From positions 97,092 through 161,091 of the forward strand of contig CANQQV010000002.1 of assembly GCA_947626095.1 (NCBI GenBank): DNA of 64,000 nucleotides, in the 5' to 3' direction. A program made the translations under genes and the position numbers. Below, in pieces: positions 714 through 63,456 of the stretch. The stretch comes from an uncultured Bacilli bacterium. GTDB taxonomy: Bacteria > Bacillota_I > Bacilli_A > RF39 > UBA660. How positions within the stretch are numbered: the stretch's first letter is position 1; every line of letters starts with the position of its first letter. The notes beneath the pieces are model-generated. The model saw only the letters and a program-made list of their open reading frames with translations, ran no database searches and had not been told where the DNA came from.

Positions 714-3233
714 TTATATCTTTCTTTTGTTTTCAATAAAAGTAACAATTCCTAGAGAAATAAAGCCGATTATTGATAAGCCAAGAGCCAACTCTTTTAA
801 TGGAGCCTTATATTCAATAGTAATATGGTGATGACCTTTATTGATTTTAAAGCCGGTAAAGGTTTCATTTACTTTTTCAATTTTTACTTTTTGATTATCG
901 ACTTTGATATTAAAGCCAATATCGTATGGAACACTCATGGTAAAGTAACCATTTTCACTGACGTCAATATCACCATTAATATAGTCTCCTTTAGTGTTTT
1001 TTTTATCAATAACTAAAGGATTAACTTTAGTAGATATTTTTTCAAGATTAGCATAATCTAAATAGAATAATTCAAAATCAGAAATATTATAAGTTCCTTC
1101 AGAAAAATAAATATTTAAATTTTCTTGATTATCAGAAGCTAAGATATAGTCAAAGGTTGTATTGCCATTATAGTATTTCCATTTTTTATTGGTTAATTTA
1201 TTTTTTACACGATTAATGGTAATGGCTAAATCTTTTTCCTCATCGCCCCTATTCATTTTAAAACGAATAAATAGGATCTTATTTTTATATTCTTCTGGTA
1301 ATTCATATTTTAACTTTAAGTTATCATCCGATTTAATAGTATATGAACCATCTTTTTCTTTAGTAATTTTTTTATTAGTAAATATTTGATCTAAATCTAA
1401 TTCCATAGGATGAACGTTGGAAATATAGTCATTAGATGTTTTAGCATCAGCAACGATAACATTTAATAAAGCTTCTTGTTTTTCTTCATCACTTAGTTTA
1501 TTAAAATCATCGTAACTCATAATATTGGAAGTAGCATAAGCAAATGGTAAGACTTGTTCATTTTTATAAACATAAATACCATCTTTTTCATTAATTTTTT
1601 CGTAACCGACTAAACCTGGACCATCAGATACATAGTATTTATTACCACTAAACATTAAATATAAAACATTTGGAGAAGTAACAGTTAAAGCACGATTACG
1701 TGAAGGAATGTTATTCATAGCTACATCATAGTAAAAACTATTATATTGTTGATTAGAGATAGATGAATAAATCGTCGAATTATAGTAATTAATATTATCA
1801 TAGATTTTATTAGGTGTTTCAGTACGAATAATATTATTTGCGATACGATACATATCTTGGTCTTCGTTGGTTATGGTACCAATTAAGTTTTTAACAATTT
1901 TTTCATTATGTCTTGTTGTATAACGTAGTTCTAAAGTATCATAATGGTTGTAAATATAACAAGTTGTAAATAGAAGTAGAAATAATGGTAAAGTAAGAAT
2001 TATTTTTTTATTGAATTTATGATAAAGAAGAACTAAAACTAATAAGATGATAATTTGAGAAAAATAAGCAACTAGATATGATTTCTTAATAAGAATGATT
2101 ATAGAAATAATAATTAAGACGGGAATAATGTGATGATATTTAACTTTCTTATTTATTATATCGTTAATAAAGTCAGCTAAGACTAAAATGTATAATGGTA
2201 AGAAAGGAATTAAAGACTTAGCATCAGTATACATTGTACCATTTAAAAGATAATTAAAAAGATTAAAAAGAACTAATAAAGATAAAATTAAAGCCAGAAT
2301 CTTTTTATTACGATCTTTAGTAAATAAATTAATAAGCGCAGGAATAATTAGCGCAGTTAAACCTAGACCATATGAATTAAAGATAAGATTTTTTAAAGAA
2401 AGACTAGGTAAAAATAATTTACCAAGTGTAATATTAGTATTTGAAGCAGCACGATTATGAATAATTGTTGCCATAGTTGGAACAGTAATAATTGCTGACA
2501 TGAAAATAGCGATAATAATTGGGCCTAAAACTTTAAAGAAAGTTTTAAGGAATGTTTTAAAGGTAACTTTTTTCATTTGTTTTAAATAACGATAAAAGCC
2601 ATAAATTAGTAAACAGACAATACCACCAACACTAAAGTAATAGCTAGTCATTATCATTAAAAAGGTCGAAATAGTAAGTAACCAACTACGCTTTTTATCA
2701 AAGATTTGATCAATACCAAATAAACCTAAGATAAGAAATGGCATATAGTTGATAAACATAATATGACGATGTGATTGGAAGGATATCGAAGATGAGAAAA
2801 TAAAAGCTAAACTGGCGATAAAGCAGACTTCACTACTATAGTTTTTCTTTTTTAAAAATAAATAAATTAGATTAGCACTAATAATAACAATAATAATAGT
2901 AGATATCATAATATATTTGATCATAGATAATTTAGGAAATAAATATGATACTAGGATGATAGGACTTAATAAACCATAATATGAGAAGTTATAGATATTT
3001 TGGCCACTACCGATATTTAACGCTAAATCAGGGAATAGATCATGAGTATCATAGAATAAAGTTCTTATATATTCGGCAATTGAAACATGCTCAGAATACC
3101 AATCTAAAGTAGAACCATAGTAACATGTTTTACCACAAAGAGCTAAGACAAAAACAATAAAAGAGATAGATATAATAGCCATGTAAATAAAATCTTTGGT
3201 GGTTAGTTTTTTGGCTTTAGTTTTCTTTTTCAT
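714..3233 (-). CDS. YfhO-family multi-pass membrane protein (GT-C type glycosyltransferase)
   Basis: GQNIYNFSYYGLLSP motif, many TM segments, C-terminal SVPYDIGF...VD; 839 aa. Confidence 0.85.
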   Translation of the reverse strand: MKKKTKAKKLTTKDFIYMAIISISFIVFVLALCGKTCYYGSTLDWYSEHVSIAEYIRTLFYDTHDLFPDLALNIGSGQNIYNFSYYGLLSPIILVSYLFPKLSMIKYIMISTIIIVIISANLIYLFLKKKNYSSEVCFIASLAFIFSSSISFQSHRHIMFINYMPFLILGLFGIDQIFDKKRSWLLTISTFLMIMTSYYFSVGGIVCLLIYGFYRYLKQMKKVTFKTFLKTFFKVLGPIIIAIFMSAIITVPTMATIIHNRAASNTNITLGKLFLPSLSLKNLIFNSYGLGLTALIIPALINLFTKDRNKKILALILSLLVLFNLFNYLLNGTMYTDAKSLIPFLPLYILVLADFINDIINKKVKYHHIIPVLIIISIIILIKKSYLVAYFSQIIILLVLVLLYHKFNKKIILTLPLFLLLFTTCYIYNHYDTLELRYTTRHNEKIVKNLIGTITNEDQDMYRIANNIIRTETPNKIYDNINYYNSTIYSSISNQQYNSFYYDVAMNNIPSRNRALTVTSPNVLYLMFSGNKYYVSDGPGLVGYEKINEKDGIYVYKNEQVLPFAYATSNIMSYDDFNKLSDEEKQEALLNVIVADAKTSNDYISNVHPMELDLDQIFTNKKITKEKDGSYTIKSDDNLKLKYELPEEYKNKILFIRFKMNRGDEEKDLAITINRVKNKLTNKKWKYYNGNTTFDYILASDNQENLNIYFSEGTYNISDFELFYLDYANLEKISTKVNPLVIDKKNTKGDYINGDIDVSENGYFTMSVPYDIGFNIKVDNQKVKIEKVNETFTGFKINKGHHHITIEYKAPLKELALGLSIIGFISLGIVTFIENKRKI

Positions 3234-4561
3234 TATGATTCACTCCATTCGCTATATTTTACCCAATTTTCATATGGTAACATGTGTCCCCAGACATCGT
3301 TTATCATATATTGACTAACATATATTTCATCAACTATTTTTTGCTTTTTCTTTAAATTTTTACTACTTACGCGTTTTAATTCTTTTTGATGTTTTTTGAT
3401 GTCTTTTTTATTTAGATAATAGTGACCAAAATAGTATAATTTGTCTTTATCTTCGACTAAGTTAGTCATCATTGTACTGGTCATTTTATGATGAATATGA
3501 CCATATTCACCATCAGGATTATGCGTAATAATAGTATCCCAATCTTTTAAAGAGATTATACTTTGTAAGTCGTTTTGAATATATTCACGCGAAGAATCCC
3601 AGTTATCTTTTTGACCATTAGTTAAATCAGGATAACCTAACATAATATATTGATCGTTAGTTTCTTTCATAGTACGTTCAAATTCTTTAACACGAACTGG
3701 ATTAACACCACAAGTTACACAAACAACTAAATAATTATCATTCATTAAATGAGAACCACCCCAAATAAGTTCATCATCGGGATGAGCAACGACCATTAAT
3801 TTATTAGTTTTACTTAAGTCTAATTTGGAATAATCATCAGGGACATGAAAACTAGGTTTGCCCCAATCATAATATGAAACCCAATCTTCATAAGGAAACA
3901 TTTGATCAAAGTAAGTTTGGATAAATGATTGACTTGGATAATAACTAATTAGTTTTTTCTTTTGACTTAGAAGACTATCATTTATAGGAGTCATTTCATT
4001 AAGATGATTAACAATATTGTTTTTACTATAATAATGACCAAAATAATATAATTTCTTTTTATCAGGAACAATACTAGTAGTAATTTGGCTAGTCATTTGA
4101 TGGTGAATATGACCATATTCGCCATCGGGATTATGCGTAACAATTGTCTGCCAATCTTTTAATTTAATAATAGCATCTAAATCTTTAGTTATATCATCTT
4201 TAACGGTATCCCAATTATCACGTTCACCATTAGTTTTATCAGGATAACCTAACATAATATATTTATCGTTAGTCGAATGCATGATATGATTAAATTCGTT
4301 AACACGAGTTTTATTAGAACCACAAGTTATACAGACAACTAAATAATTATCTTTAATTAAGTGAGCTCCACCCCAAAGAGTCTCATCATCGGGATGAGCT
4401 ACAATCATTAAATTATCAATGTCTTTTAAATCTATTTTCGTAAAGTCTTTATCTATTTTATATAAATTATGAAAATATAAATATATTCCCCCATTAATAA
4501 TAATTAGACAAATTAATAAGATTATTAATAAAATGTAATATTTTTTGATGAATTTTTTCAT
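3233..4561 (-). CDS. Membrane-anchored PIG-L/LmbE-family deacetylase with two tandem domains
   Basis: N-terminal TM, then two copies of VAHPDDE...THNPDGEYGHIHH. ATG at 4561 preferred over the track start at 4597. Confidence 0.85.
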   Translation of the reverse strand: MKKFIKKYYILLIILLICLIIINGGIYLYFHNLYKIDKDFTKIDLKDIDNLMIVAHPDDETLWGGAHLIKDNYLVVCITCGSNKTRVNEFNHIMHSTNDKYIMLGYPDKTNGERDNWDTVKDDITKDLDAIIKLKDWQTIVTHNPDGEYGHIHHQMTSQITTSIVPDKKKLYYFGHYYSKNNIVNHLNEMTPINDSLLSQKKKLISYYPSQSFIQTYFDQMFPYEDWVSYYDWGKPSFHVPDDYSKLDLSKTNKLMVVAHPDDELIWGGSHLMNDNYLVVCVTCGVNPVRVKEFERTMKETNDQYIMLGYPDLTNGQKDNWDSSREYIQNDLQSIISLKDWDTIITHNPDGEYGHIHHKMTSTMMTNLVEDKDKLYYFGHYYLNKKDIKKHQKELKRVSSKNLKKKQKIVDEIYVSQYMINDVWGHMLPYENWVKYSEWSES

Positions 4562-51923: not shown

Positions 51924-53030
51924 TCACGCATTAATAGTGACATTTTTACTATGTTTTTGAACTAGATCAAGAATCTTTTTTCTTTCAGTTTCATTAGCTA
52001 GTCGTGGACGATAATCATTTACTGGTTTAGGCGTTGATGATACCATTGCGGGAATAACTTCAATTTGGGAATCTGATAGTTTATGATCAGTAAATGTTAA
52101 GTTGGTATGGAAGACCATTGTTTCAAAGTAAGCAGGATTTTTATTACCACCAAAGGTAAAGTTACCTAAACTATAGACAATATATTTATCTTTGTATTTT
52201 TCAATACCTTGTAAACAATGAGTATGATGACCAATGATTAAATCGGCGCCATTATCGATAGCATAATGAGCTAGAGATTCTTGAGACTGACTTTGTTGGA
52301 ATGATAGTTCGATACCCTAGTGATATGTCATGATAATCATATCAACGTTTTGACTTTTTAAATAGTTAAGAGCTTTTAAAGTATCTGGTTTACAATCAGC
52401 TACTTCATCTTCAGCACAGTATAAACCAGCCATACCAATTTTTATACCTTTAACATCGAGAATAGAATAACTATCATTACCATAGAATGGTAGTTTAGCT
52501 TCACGTAAGTTATTTTTAGTATCTTCGTAACCTTTTTCGCCATAATCATGAGAATGGTTATTAGCAATGTTAACAACATCAACACCTGAACCAGTTAGAA
52601 TTTTTAATACTTTAGCTGGTGCTTTAAAGTTAAAGGCTTTAGGAACACGGTAGCTTTCGTCAGCATCAGTGATAGCTAGTTCAAGGTTAGCAATAGTTAA
52701 ATCATCTTTTTCAAACATATCTTTAAAGTTAGCTAGGAAGTAATCTGGTCCTTCTTTTTCTAAAACTTTATCATAACCTAAATCACCATAATAAAAATGA
52801 GTATCAACATTAAGCGTACAATCCCCTACAGCATGGATATCGATAGTTGTTTTAGTTGGTTCCAAAACAGGAGGTTTTTCTGTTGGATTATTTTCTGGTT
52901 CTTCCGGTGTAGCAAGATTTTGTTTTTGGGTTGTTTGATGAAATTGAGAAATAATTAAGACAACTAAGATACATCCAATTATTGTTAATAGAATAAGTGA
53001 TATATTTATTATTTTATTTCTTTGTTTCAT
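51924..53030 (-). pseudogene. CapA-family metallophosphatase-like gene with an in-frame amber stop
   Basis: GD, NLE and NNHSHDYG motifs, then YH-TAG-GIE at 52317-52319 where the family has HWG. The frame continues (IGHHTH, YSLGNF) to 51924. Confidence 0.88.
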
Positions 53031-53112
53031 AGTTAATATTCATTTCCTATTCTAATTTCATTATATATTAATAATTCGTTAAATACAATTTGTTTTTTTA
53101 AGGTATTTTAGG

Positions 53113-53118
53113 TATAAT
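53113..53118 (+). promoter_or_regulatory. -10 box of the host tRNA-Arg promoter
   Basis: TATAAT 15 nt upstream of the tRNA 5' half. Confidence 0.6.
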
Positions 53119-53133
53119 TAGTAGTAGATTTAG

Positions 53134-53173
53134 GTCCTCGTAGCTCAGTAGGATAGAGCGATCGCCTCCTAAG
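53134..53173 (+). pseudogene. 5' half of the host tRNA-Arg(CCT), interrupted at attL
   Basis: GTCCTCG TA GCTC-AGTAGGATA-GAGC G ATCGC CT CCT AA G, then non-tRNA sequence. Pairs with the 3' half at 62907-62952. Confidence 0.93.
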
Positions 53174-53248
53174 AGTGTGTTCATTTTTTAGAGGGTGTGA
53201 GGGCGAACATAAAACATACATTATCCCCTTATATTTAGGGGGATTCAT

Positions 53249-53328
53249 GTCTCCATAGCTCAGATGGATAGAGCGCAGACCTCCTAAGTCTGGTCATTGG
53301 CCGAGTTCGAGTCTCGGTGGGGACACCA
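53249..53328 (+). tRNA. Element-encoded complete tRNA-Arg(CCT) with an 8-nt variable region
   Basis: Acceptor GTCTCCA/TGGGGAC, D arm GCTC/GAGC with A20, anticodon arm CAGAC-CTCCTAA-GTCTG, T arm CCGAG-TTCGAGT-CTCGG, A73 and encoded CCA. Confidence 0.92.
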
Positions 53329-53338
53329 GGAGAATTAT

Positions 53339-53380
53339 ATGTCTTGAAATTAAAGGGTTTCAAGGCATTTTTTATTTTTT
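53339..53380 (+). terminator. Intrinsic terminator after the element tRNA
   Basis: ATGTCTTGAAA/TTTCAAGGCAT stem followed by a T tract. Confidence 0.75.
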
Positions 53381-53382
53381 AA

Positions 53383-53450
53383 AAAGTGATATAAAGTGAT
53401 ACAACATGATTTGGCATAATATTTGTTACGGCACTTTTTACGGCACCAAT
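53383..53450 (+). repeat. attL accessory repeats (putative Xis and integrase arm sites)
   Basis: AAAGTGATA x2 (53383, 53393); TTACGGCAC x2 (53426, 53438). Confidence 0.65.
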
Positions 53451-53539
53451 AAAAGATAACTTAACTATCGGTAAAATAAGGGATAAAACACAATCTTAAA
53501 AGTAGCTGCACTTTTAAAAAGTGTCAGAAAGGAAGAAAA

Positions 53540-53791
53540 ATGGAAGAAAATTTAAAAGAAATAGAAGATTTAAGATTCTATTTTACGGATGATATGAAAC
53601 AAACCTTATTTGATATGTTAACAATTCAAAATATGTTAAATAACGAGGATTTAAGTTATAAAGAAATACGACAACTTGAAAAAGAAAAAGAAAGACTCTT
53701 AGAGCACTTTAGAGAAGAACTTCATGCAAATAATCCAGTAGAAGTTGCAATTGTAAGAGAATTTCTGAACATGAAAAATGAAGAAAAGTAA
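53540..53791 (+). CDS. Hypothetical protein (element)
   Basis: 83 aa; RBS AAAGGAAG. Confidence 0.65.
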   Translation: MEENLKEIEDLRFYFTDDMKQTLFDMLTIQNMLNNEDLSYKEIRQLEKEKERLLEHFREELHANNPVEVAIVREFLNMKNEEK

Positions 53792-54037
53792 AGTATTAAG
53801 AATGAAAATACTAAGTGAAACAGTAACTATAATTAGATGGAATTTATACTTTTTTAGATTATTGATGGACTTATGTTTTAATTTATATTACTTTATCACA
53901 ATAAGTATAATTATAATTTATTGTATAGAGTAAAATTAAATTATTATTTTAATGTATATATAATTTAATACTATTTTTATAAATTTATTTATTAGTATAC
54001 AATTATTAAAAAAAATATAGAATGTTGTGGTTAAGTG

Positions 54038-54066
54038 TTGACCCGTATCAATTTTTAATGTATAAT
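54038..54066 (+). promoter_or_regulatory. SigA promoter of the methyltransferase pair
   Basis: TTGACC-17 bp-TATAAT, followed by RBS GGGAGG. Confidence 0.75.
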
Positions 54067-54088
54067 ATATTATGAAGGGAGGTTATAT

Positions 54089-54892
54089 ATGAAAACAAAT
54101 ATTATATATAATGAATCTAGTGAAACAATGCACCAAATAAATAATGAATCTATTGACATGATTGTGACCTCTCCGCCTTATAACATAAATATAAGTTATG
54201 GTAATAAAGTTTCCAAAGGAAAAATAATTCAAAGTAAAGGTGTTAAGTATAAAGATAATCTTCAAGAGGATAATTACAGATTAATGTTGGAAAAAGTATT
54301 TAGTGAATGTAAAAGAGTTTTGAAAAAAGATGGTTCAATTTTTATAAATATTAAAAATAGATATAATGATGGAACAATACTTTCACCATTTTGGATTCAG
54401 GATTATTTTAAAGATATGTTTTTAAAGAATATAATTATTTGGAATTTTGATTGGGGTGGTTCAACAAATAAAAGGTTTGCTCCTAGATATGAATATGTAT
54501 TTTGGTTTACAAAAGATAAAGAAAAATACAAATTTAATTTAGATTCTATTAAAATTCCTGCCTTAAATTATAGACCTGATAGATATAAATCACAATTAAA
54601 AAATCCTAGTGATGTATGGAAAATATCTATGGTTTCTGGGAATTTTGAAGAAAGAACAGAACATCCTGCGCAATATCCTGAAAGACTAATAGAAAGAATA
54701 ATTGGATGTTCAACATTTAAAAATGATATTGTGTTAGATCCATTTATGGGTTCTGGGACTACGGCAGCAGTTGCAAAAAAAATGAGCAGGAATTATATAG
54801 GATATGAAATAGTTCCTGAATATATAAAGATTTCAGAAGATAGATTAAAAAAATGTAAGAAAGGAGAATTATTAGATGAAAGAGACTGTTAA
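54089..54892 (+). CDS. DNA amino-methyltransferase, beta class (probably N4-cytosine), M1
   Basis: Motif IV TSPPY before motif I DPFMGSGTT; HPAQYP. Confidence 0.93.
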   Translation: MKTNIIYNESSETMHQINNESIDMIVTSPPYNINISYGNKVSKGKIIQSKGVKYKDNLQEDNYRLMLEKVFSECKRVLKKDGSIFINIKNRYNDGTILSPFWIQDYFKDMFLKNIIIWNFDWGGSTNKRFAPRYEYVFWFTKDKEKYKFNLDSIKIPALNYRPDRYKSQLKNPSDVWKISMVSGNFEERTEHPAQYPERLIERIIGCSTFKNDIVLDPFMGSGTTAAVAKKMSRNYIGYEIVPEYIKISEDRLKKCKKGELLDERDC

Positions 54893-55649
54893 GATTGAAT
54901 TTGGTGATTGCAGAGATTTATTAAAAAAAATTCCAGATGAGTCTGTAACTCTAGTTGTAACTTCTCCACCATATAATATTGGAAAACCCTATGGAAAATA
55001 CAAAGATAAAATACCTTTAGAAGAATGGAAAGAACTGATTGATGATGTTACAAAAGAAATTTATAGAATATTAAAACCTAATGGTAGTTTCTTTTTAAAT
55101 CTATCTCCAATACCCTATGGAAAAGATAAGGAGATATTACCATTACCTTATATTGGCTATGATATTATGAAAAAAAACAATTTTAAAATAAGAAATATCA
55201 TTACATGGACATTTAATAATATGCAAAATTGTACTAATAGATTGTCAGGAAGATATGAAAATATCATATGGGGTGTAAAAGACTTAAGTAATTATATATT
55301 TAATTTAGATGATATTAGAGTTCCTTATATTACTCAAAATGACAAAAGACTTACAGGTGTTGGAAGAAATCCTACTGATGTATGGTATTTTAATCGGGTA
55401 AATAATGTTACAAAAAAGAAATTAAATTTAACACATCCAACAATTTATCCATCAGATATGATTGAAAGAATAGTATTAATGGCATCGAATGAAAATGATG
55501 TTGTTCTTGACCCTTTTTTGGGAAGTGGAACTACTGTTGCTGTTGCATTAAAATTAAATAGAAAAGGAATTGGATTTGAACTTGATGAAAATTATAAAAA
55601 TGAAATTAACTTAAGACTTAAAAATGTTCAAATACAATTAAAGTTATAA
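54876..55649 (+). CDS. DNA amino-methyltransferase, beta class (probably N4-cytosine), M2
   Basis: TSPPY, HPTIYP, DPFLGSGTT; overlaps M1 by 17 nt. Confidence 0.93.
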   Translation: MKETVKIEFGDCRDLLKKIPDESVTLVVTSPPYNIGKPYGKYKDKIPLEEWKELIDDVTKEIYRILKPNGSFFLNLSPIPYGKDKEILPLPYIGYDIMKKNNFKIRNIITWTFNNMQNCTNRLSGRYENIIWGVKDLSNYIFNLDDIRVPYITQNDKRLTGVGRNPTDVWYFNRVNNVTKKKLNLTHPTIYPSDMIERIVLMASNENDVVLDPFLGSGTTVAVALKLNRKGIGFELDENYKNEINLRLKNVQIQLKL

Positions 55650-55673
55650 AAAGACATCAAATTGATGTCTTTT
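55648..55673. terminator. Bidirectional terminator between the MTase pair and the nuclease-TGT operon
   Basis: AAAAGACATCAA-A-TTGATGTCTTTT inverted repeat. Confidence 0.75.
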
Positions 55674-57018
55674 AATTAATATTATCGTGAATATATTTAA
55701 AAAAATCTATTGGAAATTTATTTATTAAATTTTCAAAACTTTCAAATTTTGATACTAATTTAGTTAATTTACAATGTTGCCATATTGAATGGCAATTCAT
55801 TATTTGTCTGGCATAATAATAGTATTCATCCGATATATATTTTTTAGAGTATAATTCTTTTAAATTGTTAGTATTATTTATTAACTTACAAGCAGGACAT
55901 CCACATAATTGGATATCATTATCTACTTCATTTATTTTATAATAGTCAAATTTATAATTATTATTTATTATTTCTAAATTGTTATCAATCATCCCAGGAA
56001 TAAATTTTGAAAAACTTTCTCTTGCTTGTTTGTCAAAAACAATAGATGATGATTCATTATTTCCATCATATGCTCGTCTTCCAGGTGTCTGGCAATCAAA
56101 AGAAGTAGCACCATTTAATACTAATGATGGTATATTATCTTTATTGCCACCACCTAATACATGTATTGGTTTTTCACCAACCACATTTTTTACAATCTTT
56201 AATGCTTTAGTAACTAAATGAGTATTTTTTAAATTACCTTTACAATCATCAAACCAAGAATCATCAGCATTTTTACTACTTGCAATGCCACCTAAGGCAT
56301 ATCCGAAGAAATTTAAATTATTATTTTTTTCTTTATTTACAATATAATTAATATATTCTTGATATTCATCAGGGGTTTTACCATGAACTGTTGCATAAAC
56401 TTTAGGATAGTAATTTTTATGCACTTTTAGATATTCAATTGTTTTATCTAAAAGTATTTTATTAAAATCATTTTCCATTAATCGATTTATTTCTGTTTTT
56501 AAATTTTCATCAGAACATTCAGAATCTTTAAAAGTGTATTTCCCACCCAAATCAAATCCTATTACAAAATCAAATTTATACTTTTGAGCAAAATCATAAT
56601 ATTCATACATTTTTTCAATCATTGTTTCTTCTACTGTGTTATGTAACTTTATTTTCCCTCTAATAATATCATTCAATATGTTTCTTGCTCCTGAATCTAG
56701 TAAATATATATTGTTATTATAATCATATTTTCCAGGAATATGTTCTTTGCAAATGTATTTTTCCTTATATATCATATCATTTCTGGTGAATTCTAAAAAC
56801 TCAGAAAAAGATTGATAATTATTTAATTTAGATAGCCATTTTGTAGCAAATTTTGGATATTTTAAATAGTAATAATTATATAATGTTGGAATTCCATTAT
56901 ATAAATCTAAATATACTGTTTCACGATATTTATCACTTCCGCCACCACCTAGGTTAGATATCCAAAAGAAACTAGGAACAACATATTTTTTGTTATTAAT
57001 CATCATTACTTGTTTCAT
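55672..57018 (-). CDS. tRNA-guanine transglycosylase (TGT)/DpdA-like protein
   Basis: TGT motifs in order: LLDSGA, IGFD, VHG, YALGG, PIHVLG, SFDC, and zinc site CGCPAC...H. Confidence 0.82.
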   Translation of the reverse strand: MKQVMMINNKKYVVPSFFWISNLGGGGSDKYRETVYLDLYNGIPTLYNYYYLKYPKFATKWLSKLNNYQSFSEFLEFTRNDMIYKEKYICKEHIPGKYDYNNNIYLLDSGARNILNDIIRGKIKLHNTVEETMIEKMYEYYDFAQKYKFDFVIGFDLGGKYTFKDSECSDENLKTEINRLMENDFNKILLDKTIEYLKVHKNYYPKVYATVHGKTPDEYQEYINYIVNKEKNNNLNFFGYALGGIASSKNADDSWFDDCKGNLKNTHLVTKALKIVKNVVGEKPIHVLGGGNKDNIPSLVLNGATSFDCQTPGRRAYDGNNESSSIVFDKQARESFSKFIPGMIDNNLEIINNNYKFDYYKINEVDNDIQLCGCPACKLINNTNNLKELYSKKYISDEYYYYARQIMNCHSIWQHCKLTKLVSKFESFENLINKFPIDFFKYIHDNIN

Positions 57019-57785
57019 TTTATCATGCTCCTAATGATCTCTACAAATTCCTCTAAGGTTCCCATTTCTAGAAGTTTTGAATATATCTTTTCTTTATATA
57101 TTGATTGAGGATTTTTTTCAAAATCTCCTTCGCGTTCTTGTCGTTGAAAAATTTTTTCGTTTATAAGAGCATTTTTTACTTGTTCACTTGTTTCAAAATA
57201 TATTCCTTTTAAACAAGGATAATCTATCCAGTGGATATAAAAGACCGGTCTTTCAATATCTGATTCGATAATTTCCAATTGCCTTTCTATCTTTTTGTAA
57301 TCTAATGTAGCACTACTTTCATAACAATATCTATTTATTTTGTTTATTGCTGAAATAAAAGGCGCACAATGATATTTTACTTCAAAATATGCAATTATTC
57401 CCTTATCTTTACCTAAAATCATACAATCAGGGTATTTTTTATTTGTTTTGTCCCCATGAACTGCTTTTATTTTTAAATGATTGGTAAAATAATCTATTAA
57501 TATTTCTTCAAATAATTGTCCCATAATTACATCATATTTAATATGGCTTTTGTTTCTGGGGTTCATGAAATACTGACCACATTTTTTACAAACATCTTTT
57601 AATTCAGGAATTTTTTCTTTTAAGACTTTAACTGGAAAAGGATTTTCATTTTGATTATTCTTAAACATATTATCAAAACAATCTTTATTGAATTCAGAAT
57701 ATAATAATTGATTTTCAAAAGTTGGTACATTCTTAAAAAAGTCTGTTAATTTATCTTTATACAATTCAAGTATTTCCTCATACAT
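57015..57785 (-). CDS. PD-(D/E)xK nuclease, putative restriction endonuclease
   Basis: GQLFEE...YPDC...YFEVK; 4-nt ATGA overlap with the TGT-like gene; lies next to two MTases. Confidence 0.72.
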   Translation of the reverse strand: MYEEILELYKDKLTDFFKNVPTFENQLLYSEFNKDCFDNMFKNNQNENPFPVKVLKEKIPELKDVCKKCGQYFMNPRNKSHIKYDVIMGQLFEEILIDYFTNHLKIKAVHGDKTNKKYPDCMILGKDKGIIAYFEVKYHCAPFISAINKINRYCYESSATLDYKKIERQLEIIESDIERPVFYIHWIDYPCLKGIYFETSEQVKNALINEKIFQRQEREGDFEKNPQSIYKEKIYSKLLEMGTLEEFVEIIRSMIK

Positions 57786-57805
57786 AATTTCACCTTCTCA
57801 GTAAA

Positions 57806-57814
57806 ATTATAGCA
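57806..57814 (-). promoter_or_regulatory. Extended -10 promoter of the nuclease-TGT operon
   Basis: TGCTATAAT on the minus strand, followed by RBS AAGGTG. Confidence 0.65.
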
Positions 57815-58088
57815 TAAATATCGTAAAAAAATAAATTTTAGCAAAAATTGTTGATTGATTTTTTTGTTTTATTATTAACAAAAATTGTATTTTTATGATT
57901 TCATCTCTACTATATAAGTAAATTAAAGGGGTATTTATTATATATAAATATAATATATAAAATATAAAAATTTATAGTATATAAGATAAACTATATATTA
58001 TTTTATCTTACAATAGGATTATAATATTATTTATCTTCCATCTGTAAAGTATATAATAAAAGAAAAGAATTAATCATACCCCTAACTT

Positions 58089-58127
58089 GTTTTACAATAT
58101 ATTCACTTCGTTCATATATTGTAAAAC
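58089..58127. repeat. Perfect 14-bp inverted repeat
   Basis: GTTTTACAATATAT-TCACTTCGTTC-ATATATTGTAAAAC. Confidence 0.85.
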
Positions 58128-58391
58128 CTTCCCCCTTTCTTGATAAGAAAAGAAAATGAGATTTGCTAAGTTCGGTTTGGTGTTACCATTGGTTTTTATG
58201 ATTACAAATTTCAATTTTTACTAAACCCATCCCTCTATTTAATAAAACACCAAATTCCGCTATCTCTCGGCTTCGAAAGATTCAGAATGAACAATTAGTC
58301 TAGGCAATTGTAAAAGTGCCTCAAAATCGATTTAAATGGGCAAAAAAAGGTATATTCAAGAACGAATGTTTGATAAGTTTTTAATCTAGTT

Positions 58392-58427
58392 TACTATGTA
58401 ACTACTATGTAGGTACTATATTACTAT
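58392..58427 (+). repeat. Four TACTAT direct repeats upstream of the excisionase-like gene
   Basis: Copies at 58392, 58403, 58414 and 58422 (spacing 11, 11, 8). Confidence 0.75.
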
Positions 58428-58480
58428 TTTTAGAGTTTTCTCTTCTAATAACTTCTATTATTATGAGGAGGATTGATAGT

Positions 58481-58663
58481 ATGAAAGAAAAACTATATAC
58501 ATTAATTGAAATTTCAAATTGGACAAAGACACCAGTTCTATATCTAAGAAGAATGATTAAAGAGGGAAAACTTGAAGCAAGTAAGATTGGAAGAAATTAT
58601 AAGGTAAGAGAATCAGAGGTTGAAAGATTCATTGATTCTTGTAGGTACAAAAATGTCAGATAA
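58481..58663 (+). CDS. Excisionase-like HTH_17 DNA-binding protein
   Basis: LYTLIEIS...LRRMIKEGKLEASKIGRNYKV; RBS GAGGAGG before ATG at 58481. Confidence 0.85.
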   Translation: MKEKLYTLIEISNWTKTPVLYLRRMIKEGKLEASKIGRNYKVRESEVERFIDSCRYKNVR

Positions 58664-59003
58664 GGATTTACTTAAGGCATTAGGCCTTGATAATAGGACA
58701 ATTACTATTGGACTTAATGATGAGTATGCTCAAATGATGATCGAAAAGAAAATTGATAGTTATCTTAAAAAGTTAGATGAAGAAAAAAAGAAAGAAGATT
58801 TCATTGACCGATTGAAAAATAGTTACGATGAGTATAAAGAAAAACAACAATTAGTAGAAATGCTAAAAAGTAAGTATGTATATGGTGCAATTAAGGATAT
58901 GCTAATTAGAGATGGTTTTAGTTTTCGTTGCCCAACATGTATTGATTTATCCGGTCAATATGGTATAGCAATTCAGAACTATCCAAAGTATAATAAAAAA
59001 TAA
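58653..59003 (+). CDS. Hypothetical protein (element)
   Basis: Overlaps the end of the HTH gene; coiled coil and a CPTC motif. Confidence 0.6.
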   Translation: MSDKDLLKALGLDNRTITIGLNDEYAQMMIEKKIDSYLKKLDEEKKKEDFIDRLKNSYDEYKEKQQLVEMLKSKYVYGAIKDMLIRDGFSFRCPTCIDLSGQYGIAIQNYPKYNKK

Positions 59004-59011
59004 GAGATGGT

Positions 59012-60103
59012 TTAGGTCATCTCTTTATTTTTTAACTTATATTTTGTCTGTTTACTTTTATCATAAACAAACATATTTAACAAATTTGTTTCTTCTATAA
59101 TATTTTGAATATACCATATAGCATTGATAATTCTTAAAGTATCAATTTGTTTATTTGAATACTTTGAACCATGTGAAATTAAATTTCTATTAATTATATT
59201 AGATTGAGGATTTTTTAATTGCTCATTATTCTTATATAATTTATCATAAAAGTTTTTTAAAATTTCTATTTTCAAAAACATTTGATATGTATCATGACTT
59301 AAATAATAATCATGTAGTGAATCAACTACTAGATGTGATGTGTGTTGCTTAGTTGAATTGTCATCTATCAATTGCAAGGTTAAACTATCAACATAAGTAA
59401 TTAGTGAGGCCAAACATATAGAATAATTGCCTAAAAAATAATTTTGTTTTATTTGCCTTAATATTTGTTTTTTATCTTTCCTTTCTTCTCGTTTTATACA
59501 TTCAGAAAAAATTCTATTTATCCTAGATTTTGTAAAATGTTTTATCATCTTTTTTTCAAAATCATTTTTGTTAAGTTTTGTTAAAGAATTTATATTTTTA
59601 TACTCATATTCATAAGGAATTACCCAAAATCTTTTGTTTAAATATTCAGTTTCATATCCAGATAAATCTCCTATGTGTAGTGATGTGATTGTTTTAGATA
59701 ATCCATCCATAATACTTTGTAATTTAGAGGAAACTGCAATATTAATAAGATTACTAAAATCATAAGAATCAATAATTGATTTAAATGTTTCAGATAATTT
59801 TGAAGTAGTTTCAATACTATTTTTTATTACATTAGGCATAATAATCTTTTGATAATCTGCAATAATTTTTGCTGTTTTATTAAGTGATGAACTTAGTTCC
59901 ATATTTTGTTGTAATGCATTTGGAATTATTGATGTATGCATATCAATTAAAGATTTTGATAATTGACTTAGTGTTGATGACATTCCTTTAATGCTATTCA
60001 TATATTCTGCTGATTTTAATTTTTCTTGAATTTCAGACAAACTTGTTTCATTATGGCTGTCTAGTGATTTAATAATATTTTTTTTGTCATTATTTTCTTT
60101 CAT
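59012..60103 (-). CDS. Protein with a C-terminal HEPN-like Rx4H motif
   Basis: Helical N-terminus; NRNLISHG at 59168-59191 near the C-terminus. Confidence 0.55.
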   Translation of the reverse strand: MKENNDKKNIIKSLDSHNETSLSEIQEKLKSAEYMNSIKGMSSTLSQLSKSLIDMHTSIIPNALQQNMELSSSLNKTAKIIADYQKIIMPNVIKNSIETTSKLSETFKSIIDSYDFSNLINIAVSSKLQSIMDGLSKTITSLHIGDLSGYETEYLNKRFWVIPYEYEYKNINSLTKLNKNDFEKKMIKHFTKSRINRIFSECIKREERKDKKQILRQIKQNYFLGNYSICLASLITYVDSLTLQLIDDNSTKQHTSHLVVDSLHDYYLSHDTYQMFLKIEILKNFYDKLYKNNEQLKNPQSNIINRNLISHGSKYSNKQIDTLRIINAIWYIQNIIEETNLLNMFVYDKSKQTKYKLKNKEMT

Positions 60104-60181
60104 GTTTTCACCTCAAGAAATATTATATCATCATTTTTGCTGTATTTATGCTATAATAGTCAATCAAAAGGAAGTGATGTC

Positions 60182-60631
60182 ATGATTCTATATAATACTA
60201 GAACAGATAAGTTACCTTTAAGTACAGAGTTTTATAATAATCATGCAAATGGTCTTAAAATGTTTAGGTATAATGAAACTCTTATGAATAATTGTGGAGA
60301 TTATAAGATTCAAGAACAAATTACTTCTGATGTTTATTACACTTACAATGCCTTAGTAAAATTCAATAATACTTTAGACAAAGAGGTTATCAATGCTTTT
60401 AATATATTAGATAAGTTTTTACAAGAACATAAAGAAGTTAAAAATAGTAAGGATAACAAGTGCAAAAACTATTATGAAAAAATTCTTTATTGGAATAATA
60501 AATATAAAAAAGATTCATCAGATAGTAGTGTCCAAATAATTATATCTGATGTGCAAGATTTAATGAGATTCTTAGCAAAACAAGAAATAATAAAAGAATC
60601 CGGATGTAATTTAAAAAGAAATTATTTTTAG
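60182..60631 (+). CDS. Hypothetical protein (element)
   Basis: TGCTATAAT promoter and RBS-like AAGGAAGTGA before ATG at 60182. Confidence 0.6.
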   Translation: MILYNTRTDKLPLSTEFYNNHANGLKMFRYNETLMNNCGDYKIQEQITSDVYYTYNALVKFNNTLDKEVINAFNILDKFLQEHKEVKNSKDNKCKNYYEKILYWNNKYKKDSSDSSVQIIISDVQDLMRFLAKQEIIKESGCNLKRNYF

Positions 60632-60820
60632 AGGACAAAATTGCCCTCTTATTTTTTTTGTTTTCTTTTAGATACCGAACACAAATCGAACATCAAAACA
60701 ACAAAAAACTCATTCTAAGGGGCAGACATGAGGTTATTAATAATAATAAAATGGAATCAACAAGAGAAAAAACACACTCTTGATTGGCCAATAAAATTTG
60801 TGTTATTAGGAGGAGATTAA

Positions 60821-61330
60821 ATGAGTTTTTTAGATTATATTAATGAGAATACAGAGGGGTTGGCTTTAATTGATAGATTAAGAAATGCAATAAAAAATTT
60901 ATGTCATGATGACATTAAAAATGAGTTTAAAGAAGTTACAGAGGATGATATTGATAAACTGACTCTTTTTATTGAAAATAGTCTTATAGAATGCTTAAAG
61001 AATTATGATGGAGATTTTGATACTATTTCATTAGAATATGTAACGAATACAATTGGGGGTTTAGTAGGTTTTCATCGTTTGCTTAATGGTATTGATAAAA
61101 ATAGAAGAGAATCTTATTTAGAAATATTATGGGATGTAATATGTGAGTCATTTTCTAGTGTTGATGATATAGATAAATTATGTGAATTATCTTATGTAGT
61201 CAATAAGTATGTAATGATTAATGCCGGAGAATATGATGGAGATTATTCAGATTGTCTTTGTGAAAAAGACATGCAAGAGTGTTTATCAGAAATATATAAA
61301 TACATACTTAAAGATAAATTGGATTTCTAG
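60821..61330 (+). CDS. Hypothetical acidic protein (element)
   Basis: Strong RBS AGGAGG; 169 aa. Confidence 0.7.
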   Translation: MSFLDYINENTEGLALIDRLRNAIKNLCHDDIKNEFKEVTEDDIDKLTLFIENSLIECLKNYDGDFDTISLEYVTNTIGGLVGFHRLLNGIDKNRRESYLEILWDVICESFSSVDDIDKLCELSYVVNKYVMINAGEYDGDYSDCLCEKDMQECLSEIYKYILKDKLDF

Positions 61331-61335
61331 GGGTA

Positions 61336-61539
61336 TTGGCTTTGACTAAAGAGATGTGTGATTTAAAGACAATATCAGAATATCTAGATTTATCAATACC
61401 ATATATCAGAAAGTTAGTCAGAGCCAAAATGATACCTTATTATAAATTTGGTAACAGACTAAAATTTGATATAAAAGAAATCAATGAATGGATAGAATTA
61501 CATCGCCAAGAAGAACGAAAAAGTGTCCTTTTCTTCTAG
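61336..61539 (+). CDS. Excisionase-like HTH_17 protein adjacent to the integrase
   Basis: ISEYLDLSIPYIRKLV...IPYYKFGNRLKFD..EINEW. Confidence 0.85.
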   Translation: MALTKEMCDLKTISEYLDLSIPYIRKLVRAKMIPYYKFGNRLKFDIKEINEWIELHRQEERKSVLFF

Positions 61540-61619
61540 GAAAAAATGCCGTTTTATGGTATAATATTTATAGATAGTTAAGTATGTGTTCTATCCCATA
61601 AGTTATGAAAGGAGAACTT

Positions 61620-62765
61620 ATGGCAATTAAAAAAATAGATGTGAACAAATACAAAATAACTATTGAACTCGGTTATGATATATTAGGTAATCGGAAACGA
61701 AAGACAATCAATTTTACTGGTACTAAGTCAGAGGCAATTAAAAGAGAGGCCGAACTAAAAACAGAATATTATCACATGGGAGAATCCAAACGAATAACAG
61801 ATTTGACTTTCAAAGATTTATCAGAAATATTCATTGAAAAATATTGTAAGCCAAATATTTCATTGGTTACAACAAATGGATATAAAAAGTCTCTTAAAAG
61901 AATACTTCCAATCATAGGAAATAGAAAGTTAAAAGATATAACACCTTTTGTCTTAGATAATATGTATCAAAAATTGAGAATTGGTAAGAATGGTCAAGAG
62001 TTAGGATATCATTCAAATTATAATTTATATAAAGTTGTAAATGTTATGTTTAATCAAGCAATTAGATGGGAGATTATGGATAAGAATCCTAACTTAAAAG
62101 CAAGTAAGCCAAAGAAAGAACATAAGGAAAAGAACTTCTATGATGTTTATCAAGTTAAGAAGTTGTTAGATGTTCTTGAAAATGAATCTATCAAATATAA
62201 AATGTTAATTGTACTTGCCTTAGATTCCGGTGCAAGAAGAAGTGAGATTTGTGCTTTAAGATGGTCAGACATTGACTTAGATACAAGAATGGTAAGCATA
62301 ACAAAATCACTTAAAGTTGTTGAGGGTGTCATTGATGAAAAAACAACAAAGACAGAATCATCCATCAGAACAATTAAATTGAGTGAAGCGACTATCAATC
62401 TTATTAAGGAATATAAGAAATGGCAAGATGCCTATAAGTTAGTTAACAAGCAAAGATGGATTGGAAAAGATGACAGAGTTTTTACCTCTTTAAATGGTTC
62501 ATACATGTTCCCGGGTACTTGTGACCATATATTGAGAAAGATTGTTAAGAAATACAATTTAGACCCAATATGTTTTCATGAGTTAAGGCATACATGTGCA
62601 AGTCTTTTAATTAATTCTGGTGTTGACCCTAAGACTGTCAGTAAGAGATTAGGCCATTCAGATACATCAATCACGATGGAAATATATACTCATTCATTCG
62701 AAGAAAGTAAAAATGCATGTGCAGACAGATTTGATGAAATGATGAAAAAGTTAGAAATGGCATAA
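61620..62765 (+). CDS. int: Tyrosine recombinase/integrase
   Basis: SGARRSE (R), TKT (K), FHELRHT (HxxR), RLGH and IYTH (Y); RBS AAAGGAG before ATG at 61620. Confidence 0.96.
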   Translation: MAIKKIDVNKYKITIELGYDILGNRKRKTINFTGTKSEAIKREAELKTEYYHMGESKRITDLTFKDLSEIFIEKYCKPNISLVTTNGYKKSLKRILPIIGNRKLKDITPFVLDNMYQKLRIGKNGQELGYHSNYNLYKVVNVMFNQAIRWEIMDKNPNLKASKPKKEHKEKNFYDVYQVKKLLDVLENESIKYKMLIVLALDSGARRSEICALRWSDIDLDTRMVSITKSLKVVEGVIDEKTTKTESSIRTIKLSEATINLIKEYKKWQDAYKLVNKQRWIGKDDRVFTSLNGSYMFPGTCDHILRKIVKKYNLDPICFHELRHTCASLLINSGVDPKTVSKRLGHSDTSITMEIYTHSFEESKNACADRFDEMMKKLEMA

Positions 62766-62775
62766 AATCATAGCA

Positions 62776-62797
62776 TTATGGCACCAATTCACGGCAC
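62776..62797 (+). repeat. attR arm-type repeats
   Basis: TTATGGCAC (62776) and TCACGGCAC (62789) match TTACGGCAC at attL. Confidence 0.65.
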
Positions 62798-62906
62798 CTT
62801 AATGAAAAACGAGTTCAAAGAAAAATAAGTAAAATTAAAAGAAACCCTTTATTTATAAGGATTTCTTGATGTATAATATTGGTGTCCGAGGGATGAGGAA
62901 CAGCCC

Positions 62907-62952
62907 CCTCCTAAGCGATAGGTCGGCAGTTCGATTCTGCCTGGGGACGCCA
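62907..62952 (+). pseudogene. 3' half of the host tRNA-Arg(CCT) at attR
   Basis: C CT CCT AA GCGAT AGGTC GGCAG-TTCGATT-CTGCC TGGGGAC G CCA. GCGAT pairs with ATCGC and TGGGGAC with GTCCTCG of the 5' half. Confidence 0.93.
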
Positions 62953-62956
62953 TATA

Positions 62957-62989
62957 AAAAATAAAGCCTGTTGAGGCTTTTTTTATTTG
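62957..62989. terminator. Terminator after the tRNA 3' half and the convergent VanZ gene
   Basis: AAAGCCT-GTTG-AGGCTTT followed by a T tract. Confidence 0.7.
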
Positions 62990-63456
62990 ACACTTTTATT
63001 TGTAAAATTGAAATACTTTTGATGAAGAAGATAGAAGATGATTGTGGAGATAGATGCACCGCAAGTATCAATTAAGACGTCTAGTAGTTCACCAGAACGA
63101 CCACTTATAAACAGTTGATGACATTCATCACTACAAGCATAGATTAAACAGAGGATGATAGTATATATAATGGTTTTAGGAGTTAGATGATAGATTTTGT
63201 AGTATAGACGGAAGACAAGGAAACCAAGGATGAAGTAAGCCGTAAAATGAGCTGTTTTACGGACTATTTTGGAATAAGTTGAAGTTATTTTTTGTTGTTC
63301 TATAGGACTTAGTTCTTTGGAGGTTATAGTATTAATAACATTGATAATAAAGTTATTACTAGTTTCTTTGGAAGCAACGCCAGTTTGACTAGAGAAATGA
63401 AAAATTATAAACATCCAAAGAATAATTAAGATGATATTAAAGATATATTTTTTCAT
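62983..63456 (-). CDS. VanZ-family membrane protein
   Basis: IFHFSSQ, VRKTAHFTAY, YACSDECHQLFISGRSG...DVLID. Confidence 0.9.
   Translation of the reverse strand: MKKYIFNIILIILWMFIIFHFSSQTGVASKETSNNFIINVINTITSKELSPIEQQKITSTYSKIVRKTAHFTAYFILGFLVFRLYYKIYHLTPKTIIYTIILCLIYACSDECHQLFISGRSGELLDVLIDTCGASISTIIFYLLHQKYFNFTNKSVK

Follow-up and report, generated by a model that had tools for sequence, protein, structure and literature searches.

What remains of a host tRNA gene when a mobile element cuts it in two and neither end of the insertion puts it back together? This question is raised by a 64-kb stretch of DNA (the window, by which we mean the whole stretch analysed) from the genome of a low-GC uncultured gut Bacilli bacterium, in which the two halves of a host tRNA-Arg(CCT) gene lie at either end of an insert that carries a complete tRNA-Arg(CCT) gene of its own. 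We conclude that the insert is very probably a non-phage island of 9,742 bp, integrated in the anticodon loop of the host gene, which replaces the gene it splits with its own complete tRNA. The genome is a metagenome-style assembly of 1.6 Mb and 28% G+C in 34 contigs, with 91% completeness and 7.9% contamination.

A split host gene and a whole copy inside the insert

The elements of the locus that carry this reading lie at the left and right attachment sites (attL and attR) and are as follows.

53113-53118, + strand: TATAAT 15 nt before the orphan 5′ half, presumed -10 box of the host tRNA promoter
53134-53173, + strand: host tRNA-Arg(CCT), orphan 5′ half, with the attL core CCTCCTAAG (53165-53173) as its last 9 nt
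53174-53248, + strand: island spacer of 75 nt from crossover to tRNA, with a hairpin at about 53223-53244 that ends 4 nt before the tRNA in the minimum-free-energy (MFE) fold
53249-53328, + strand: complete island tRNA-Arg(CCT) of 80 nt, with an 8-nt variable loop and encoded CCA (ARAGORN; Rfam RF00005)
53339-53378, + strand: intrinsic-terminator-like hairpin and T-run, directly 3′ of the island tRNA
62907-62952, + strand: attR core CCTCCTAAG (62907-62915) and orphan 3′ half of the host tRNA-Arg(CCT)
62963-62980: host terminator after the orphan 3′ half

The repeat common to the two halves is the 9-bp CCTCCTAAG and nothing longer. Joined in silico by their coordinates, the halves form a 77-nt tRNA-Arg(cct) with a regular cloverleaf, which shows 0 mismatches to the intact genes of two relatives from other species of the genus (L002/G005 and L005/G019) and 1-10 mismatches to those of nine further relatives. 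An intact 77-nt tRNA-Arg(cct) is present in 11 of 11 relatives' loci examined, and the orphan 5′ half matches positions 1-40 of the intact G005 and G019 tRNAs at 100% identity. G005 offers a syntenic empty site, in which both window flanks align to one unbroken locus (L002 1193-2345 for the left flank and 2337-3344 for the right). As these alignments overlap by exactly the 9-bp core, the insert is 9,742 bp long and lies in a true chromosomal attachment site (attB).

Neither junction is recognised as a tRNA at attL or attR, either by ARAGORN over the 64-kb window or by Infernal/Rfam over 52900-63100. The single tRNA that ARAGORN reports in the window is the tRNA-Arg(cct) at 53249-53328 on the + strand, and the same gene is the only one that Infernal/Rfam reports in its interval (51.8 bits, gathering score 29). 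All 21 of its 21 stem pairs are formed; it differs from the host tRNA in every stem and in a longer variable loop, and has an identical anticodon loop. We considered whether this whole tRNA could be a host/island hybrid left by a classical integration event, and this is ruled out because the host 5′ half is still there as an orphan and does not have the sequence of the 5′ half of the whole tRNA.

Other loci, too, have TATAAT-like boxes 10-20 nt before their host 5′ halves, and the host tRNA promoter would presumably now read into the spacer and the island tRNA. A similar hairpin and T-run was seen by eye 3′ of the tRNA in the downstream sequences of relatives. An earlier note on this DNA had claimed that the host halves rejoin into a cloverleaf and share only a 9-bp core, that neither junction rebuilds a tRNA, and that a complete cognate tRNA begins 75 nt inside attL with a terminator after it; each of these claims is borne out, and an intact attB, which it had proposed to look for, is found in relatives from other species. 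Its further statement that this tRNA lies downstream of the host promoter holds as far as the TATAAT at 53113-53118 goes and is not upheld by the consensus scan, which calls no promoter there.

Recurrence across the integrase family

Relatives were sought by integrase scans with a two-integrase alignment, which gave 17 loci in genome contigs and 37 in metagenome contigs (among these 54, L024 is G018 again and L073 duplicates L030). Where both ends could be reached, 15 loci combine a split host tRNA with a whole one (the window, L016, L017, L018, L019, L023, L025, L027, L030, L057, L063, L065, L066, L068 and L082), and two look classical (L024/G018 and the decayed L031); since most loci are unclassified, 15 to 2 is a tally of visible loci and not a frequency. 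The survey of integrase homologues that the earlier note had proposed thus does recover the same layout. In the genus itself, one of 26 other genomes (G018) has a related integrase, 73% identical to that of the window, and its element looks classical, with an intact tRNA at attL and an identical 46-bp repeat of core plus 3′ half at attR. In nearly every locus with DNA downstream of the integrase gene (int), attR consists of a CTCCTAA loop followed by a tRNA 3′ half, and in four related host metagenome-assembled genomes (MAGs; G043, G044, G045 and G047) the host-type tRNA is present only as halves, together with the whole island copy.

In a maximum-likelihood tree of the integrases (48 rows, midpoint root) the split state falls on both sides of the root, down to ~57-60% identity, and the classical G018 is nested in a starred clade otherwise made up of split elements. 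The tree, whose root is not itself established, agrees with an early origin of the whole tRNA in the family. At the shallow end, integrases at least 95% identical (window, L016, L017, L023, L047, L048, L049 and L063; the window's is 95-96% identical to those of L016, L017, L023 and L063) adjoin eight different host 3′ halves, from which it follows that the element has moved recently among hosts with differing tRNA stems.

Two side observations concern this family. No CTCCTAA site follows int in L028 or in the 52-54% clade (L075 and L077-L080), which presumably use another target; the integrases of these loci are 52-59% identical, which suggests a target switch within the family. Separately, the integrase match in L023 (10001-11157) is 1,157 nt long, which is no multiple of three, and its straight translation contains 9 stops, which suggests that this element, 95% identical otherwise, has a frameshifted integrase or was misassembled.

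The island tRNAs retain the structure of functional tRNAs in spite of their sequence divergence. Across nine of them there are 0 non-pairs in 189 stem cells, 17 of the 21 pairs vary, up to four pair types occur at one stem position, and the anticodon stems exist in five fully paired versions. These perfect stems with compensatory changes, spanning integrases down to ~57-60% identity, argue for selection on tRNA function. In each of the 15 loci, the acceptor and anticodon stems that the two orphan halves form together are free of mismatches; a hypothetical hybrid of host 5′ and island 3′ halves would have 1-5 stem mismatches in 14 of the 15, mostly in the anticodon stem.

Comparison of close relatives indicates that the tRNA gene has a history apart from that of its surroundings. 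The window spacer and downstream DNA (53174-53428) are 96-97% identical to L063 and L023 (the spacer alone, 96% to both), and the tRNA only 70%; conversely, L057 has a tRNA 96% identical to that of the window, between flanks that are only 74-75% identical. Given this discordance, the tRNA gene has been exchanged as a cassette between islands. A donor of the 80-nt tRNA was not found among 399 scored genomes of the class, in which spacer plus tRNA are matched over their full length in only two other genomes, at 83-85% identity, and elsewhere the tRNA is matched only in part, at 73-85%.

The L016/L033 locus (L033 is G043:C17; positions 1346-1634 on the reverse complement) is nested: behind the host 5′ half come 54 nt, another orphan 5′ half, a 76-nt spacer and a whole tRNA. 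The second orphan 5′ half equals the first 39 nt of an L027-type island tRNA. Island tRNAs thus appear themselves to serve as attachment sites for the family, with their fragments travelling on.

Attachment-site layout, proposed mechanism and rival accounts

Three further features bear on how integration would proceed.

53385-53447, + strand: candidate P′-arm repeats, AGTGATA twice (53385-53391 and 53395-53401) and a GGCAC pair (53430 and 53442)
62780-62798, + strand: P-arm GGCAC pair (62780 and 62793), candidate arm-type integrase sites just after int
62872-62906, + strand: island right end, with TATAAT (62872-62877), then TGGTGTCC (62880-62887), then ~19 nt to the core

The + strand of the 64-kb window holds 10 copies of GGCAC, four of them in the two patches next to the attachment sites. 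GGCAC(Y) pairs occur at both ends in six of the seven other elements displayed, and the left end of G018 has one exact copy. The left pair lies ~100 nt after the island tRNA, with AGTGATA-like repeats between the tRNA terminator and that pair, so that the whole tRNA sits between the crossover and the candidate P′-arm sites and would lie inside the element's own attachment site (attP) if these repeats act as arms. The distance from crossover to tRNA ranges from 42 to 79 nt in the family and falls, among 15 spacers, into classes of 42, 53-55, 65 and 75-79 nt. These classes are ~11 bp apart, roughly one helical turn, and may reflect helical phasing between core and P′-arm sites; as they represent only four or five independent lineages, the steps in length are a lead and not a result. 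In 14 of the 15 spacers the MFE fold has a hairpin close to the tRNA (4-8 nt upstream), built from different sequences (L034 folds otherwise).

At the other end of the island, TGGTGTCC is the reverse complement of a tRNA 3′ end, CCA included, and nearly all attR sites displayed (L016-L031 and L047-L082) keep a GGTGTYC/GCGTCC motif ~26 nt short of the loop. The right end looks like a decayed tRNA 5′ half without its D arm, and ARAGORN calls the attR hybrid a poor 71-nt tRNA in L022 and L063 and makes no call in the window. The motif may descend from an ancestral attP that lay within a whole tRNA gene, or may serve as a protein-binding site.

A strong promoter-like site on the minus strand (53363-53334, TTGAAA-18-TATAAT, 11/12) would read antisense through the tRNA and overlaps its terminator. 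A properly spaced site of this kind occurs in 7 of 17 element loci, all except L018 in the close clade, and at that position in none of 11 native tRNA loci (L011 has a weak match 34 nt further off). We set it aside as a probable by-product of the hairpin.

The anatomy of the locus, its empty site, its recurrence in the family and the conserved structure of the island tRNAs are read directly from the DNA, and from this anatomy we infer recombination by a tyrosine integrase with an attB in the host tRNA. The integrase would exchange strands within the 7-nt anticodon loop, plus its closing pair; in L025, L027 and the nested L033, where the closing pair differs, only the 7 nt of the loop are shared. 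The attP would have no usable tRNA 3′ half beside its core, and because attP and attB share only CCTCCTAAG, attL and attR each hold a dead half. The island tRNA would then take the place of the host gene: its transcription would probably start at the host tRNA promoter (TATAAT at 53113-53118) and stop at its own terminator, and normal tRNA processing would release it. It would complement the lost host tRNA, and the island is presumably mobile. The likely benefit would be that the island requires only the near-universal anticodon loop of an isoacceptor, and not the host stems; with no need to match those stems, it could enter hosts with divergent tRNA-Arg(CCT) genes without creating a defective hybrid.

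Independence from the host's stems fits the evidence, and above all the mismatched stems of a host 5′/island 3′ hybrid in 14 of the 15 loci, better than addiction through a costly loss of the left end. The earlier note had expected imprecise loss of that end to be costly, and this part of it is probably weak: the orphan halves show no decay, and an exact excision would give the host gene back. AGG is also rare in the genome, at 479 of 376,975 codons (1.27 per 1000) in 810 long open reading frames (ORFs), and the assembly includes a tRNA-Arg(tct). The island genes use it in 13 of 2,665 codons, ~4 times the host rate, and this use may add a selfish reason for the island to carry the decoder.

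We further suggest, tentatively and with somewhat less than even confidence, that attP in this family cannot do without the complete tRNA, which would be a module set in phase between crossover and P′-arm sites. Were this so, the island could enter any host whose tRNA-Arg(CCT) keeps its anticodon loop, and each integrated island would be a new portable attB on which relatives stack, leaving nested orphan halves. Through cassette exchange, the AGG decoder of many gut Bacilli species would be a mobile-element allele, and the ~11-bp spacer classes would reflect a helical-phase constraint on an unusually long attP.

Nested orphan halves such as those layered at L016/L033 would also arise if an ancestral island had repaired its target classically and the whole tRNA and spacer were harmless leftovers of nested integration or of excision at an outer site. 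The homology between the DNA downstream of the window tRNA and that downstream of the tRNA at the classical G018 attL points the same way, as does the resemblance of the island right end to a decayed 5′ half. We nonetheless regard this account as quite unlikely, in view of the perfect stems and many compensatory changes that persist down to ~57-60% integrase identity and of the swapping of the tRNA as an exact cassette between 96-97% identical flanks; moreover, such a history explains how the tRNA came to be there and is compatible with its complementing the host today. That the exchange of alleles instead has a function of its own, whether altered AGG decoding, service to the AGG-richer island genes, escape from anticodon nucleases or addiction, is in our judgement very unlikely. 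The ~4-fold commoner AGG of the island genes would agree with it, as would the differences in every stem and the longer variable loop of the island tRNA, and counter-defence against tRNA-degrading systems is raised as a possibility in the discussion of a study of actinobacteriophages (PMC10865867). The anticodon loop, however, is identical to the host's, so that escape from anticodon nucleases is not obvious; the host halves are intact, so that precise excision would restore the gene and addiction could not be strict; and close relatives carry quite different cassettes, which suggests that any working tRNA-Arg(CCT) suffices. A chimeric MAG contig that joined an island to tRNA halves might be suspected from the 34-contig metagenome-style assembly and its 7.9% contamination, and is scarcely credible given that junctions of this structure are seen in 14 further contigs, which come from different assemblies and hosts and each have matching host halves of their own. 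In addition, 79-91% of the words sampled from the stretch are contained in four sequencing runs, all from one study, and the source sample may be among them.

Replacement of the split gene by the island's own tRNA must itself be weighed against several observations that count against it. No second tRNA-Arg(cct) is among the 22 tRNAs found in the assembly, which favours replacement, but the assembly is 91% complete and a second copy on unassembled DNA is possible. One of the 22 is a tRNA-Arg(tct), and a tRNA of this kind can often read AGG by wobble; with AGG as rare as it is, the essentiality of tRNA-Arg(CCT) is doubtful and dependence on the island copy may be weak. The 8-nt variable loop of the island tRNA is unusual for a class I tRNA. 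The consensus promoter scan makes no call at three places, before the orphan half, within the spacer and at the right end; the runs that match the stretch comprise 12 DNA rows from four studies, four of them with at least half of the words, and no RNA run, and transcription and charging of the island tRNA are predictions. Excised attP or attB forms were not seen, the attR cores of ~40 contigs all being followed by a host 3′ half, and 31 of the 54 integrase loci are unclassified because they run into contig ends or have attL more than 10 kb upstream.

Island genes and comparison with known systems

Between its two attachment sites the island carries the following genes.

54089-54892 and 54876-55649, + strand: two overlapping N6/N4 (type II-like, adenine-type) DNA methyltransferase genes, cargo
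55672-57018, - strand: 448-aa cargo protein with a weak match to the tRNA-guanine-transglycosylase (TGT) fold (PF01702, 26.8 bits, cut-off 26.3)
57015-57785, - strand: 256-aa cargo protein with a sub-threshold HSDR_N hint
58463-58663 and to 59003, + strand: excisionase-family helix-turn-helix (HTH) protein (PF12728, TIGR01764) and an overlapping 127-aa ORF, backbone
59012-60103, - strand: ORF without a family match
60137-60631, + strand: ORF without a family match, conserved with the G018 element
60821-61330, + strand: ORF without a family match
61336-61539, + strand: excisionase-family HTH protein directly upstream of int (PF12728; TIGR01764, 36.6 bits, cut-off 28.8)
61605-62765, + strand: tyrosine integrase of 386 aa, open frame (PF00589, E 4e-34; PF14659; phrog_1, E 1e-77)

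The two methyltransferases are clear (Pfam PF01555, E 8e-63 and 6e-53; PADLOC MTase_II; NCBIfam). No restriction endonuclease family is matched in the insert beside them, beyond the weak TGT-fold and HSDR_N hints, all of which lie at or below curated cut-offs. From its position next to the methyltransferases, the minus-strand pair may be their restriction partner. As a side observation, the 448-aa protein may be an enzyme that modifies DNA in the manner of DpdA, or a restriction component not recognised as such. Both backbone ORFs at 58463-59003 are conserved with the G018 element, with 68.5% DNA similarity to L015, and the HTH protein at 61336-61539 is a candidate directionality factor. Four ORFs of the insert have no match in Pfam (also at relaxed thresholds), PHROGs, PADLOC or NCBIfam, and one Atlas look-up was uninformative.

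We also looked for marks of phages and their satellites. PHROGs yields no phage structural, packaging or lysis family in the insert, only methyltransferase, excisionase/HTH and integrase families, except that the 67-aa HTH protein weakly matches a small-terminase family (phrog_57, E 1e-05). That match aside, primase/replicase, packaging and capsid-redirection families, the marks of satellites, have no match in Pfam, PHROGs and NCBIfam, although one of the four unassigned ORFs might still belong to such a family. Phage and viral-contig collections hold no close relative of the integrase (best identities 34% and 27%), and streptococcal satellite integrases are only ~30% identical to it. The insert appears to be a small integrative island and not a temperate phage, and may be a carrier of restriction-modification (R-M) or defence functions.

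The replace-instead-of-repair strategy that the earlier note put forward stands in its substance, since no junction rebuilds the host gene and a cognate tRNA is supplied and is kept across the family; it is not new, the principle having been published as tRNA-dependent lysogeny in actinobacteriophages (Guerrero-Bustamante and Hatfull, mBio 2024, PMC10865867). In the portion of that paper drawn on here, phages with a short core (8-17 bp) leave the host tRNA unrebuilt, and a phage tRNA of the same isotype was shown experimentally to be required for viable lysogens; the examples include Fionnbharth/K4, cluster L, Cain/K6, Gaia/X and Gordonia CQ2/DL, and close relatives with related integrases repair the tRNA classically. 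The likeness to the island is extensive: a tyrosine integrase, an attB in a host tRNA, a short core (here 9 bp), unrebuilt junctions, a cognate tRNA carried by the element (here also in 14 related elements) and a classical relative, here G018 with its 73% identical integrase.

The island differs from the phages of PMC10865867, as they are described in that portion, in four respects. It is 9.7 kb long and has no PHROG structural or packaging family, so that there is no lysogeny to speak of, and its hosts are low-GC uncultured gut Bacilli and not Actinobacteria. In Fionnbharth the tRNA overlaps gene 37 on the opposite strand, apart from the attP that lies just upstream of int, whereas here it lies inside attP. 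The target tRNA-Arg(CCT) is probably dispensable, in contrast to the single and essential tRNA-Lys(TTT) of M. smegmatis. A closer parallel by host is the Lj965 prophage of Lactobacillus johnsonii, whose junction fails to rebuild a tRNA and which encodes a cognate one, according to the discussion of the same paper. Like the island it is a Firmicute element; unlike it, Lj965 is a full prophage, with four tRNA genes in the account given in the relevant part of PMC3714127.

The island also resembles systems of the repairing kind. With the Islander-type islands described in the part of PMC4383910 used here it shares an integrase at one end, a crossover in the anticodon loop and a displaced tRNA fragment at the far end; there the island sequence regenerates the split gene, and the window island does not. 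Regeneration of that type is absent in the window, with its 9-bp repeat and no junction tRNA, and present in G018, with its 46-bp repeat. Williams reportedly described, in 2002, islands that target tRNA genes with a crossover in the anticodon loop. The units of R-M genes and an integrase in tRNA genes reported by Furuta, Abe and Kobayashi (2010; PMC2853133, in the part considered) are comparable as small integrase-plus-R-M-type units in a tRNA; unlike the island, they have long direct repeats that match the tRNA 3′ end, which is classical repair, and in the island a restriction enzyme is not identified. Our literature searches, which did not cover subscription journals, found no description of non-phage islands with the layout reported here.

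What is new here is a non-phage island, a tRNA inside attP, nested orphan halves at one locus and the exchange of the tRNA as a cassette. Destroying a tRNA gene and bringing one's own is not confined to temperate actinobacteriophages, and appears to be the prevailing state, among the loci seen, of a family of small cargo islands in uncultured gut Bacilli. Two practical consequences would follow: island finding that relies on a regenerated tRNA and a displaced fragment, which is the Islander logic, would miss or mis-delimit such islands, and tRNA annotation in such genomes may list a mobile allele as the host AGG decoder. The compact module of integrase, excisionase, attP and tRNA, with its conserved target of 7-9 bp, might be made into a tool for integration in a broad range of low-GC Firmicutes, as is proposed in PMC10865867 for the actinobacteriophages.

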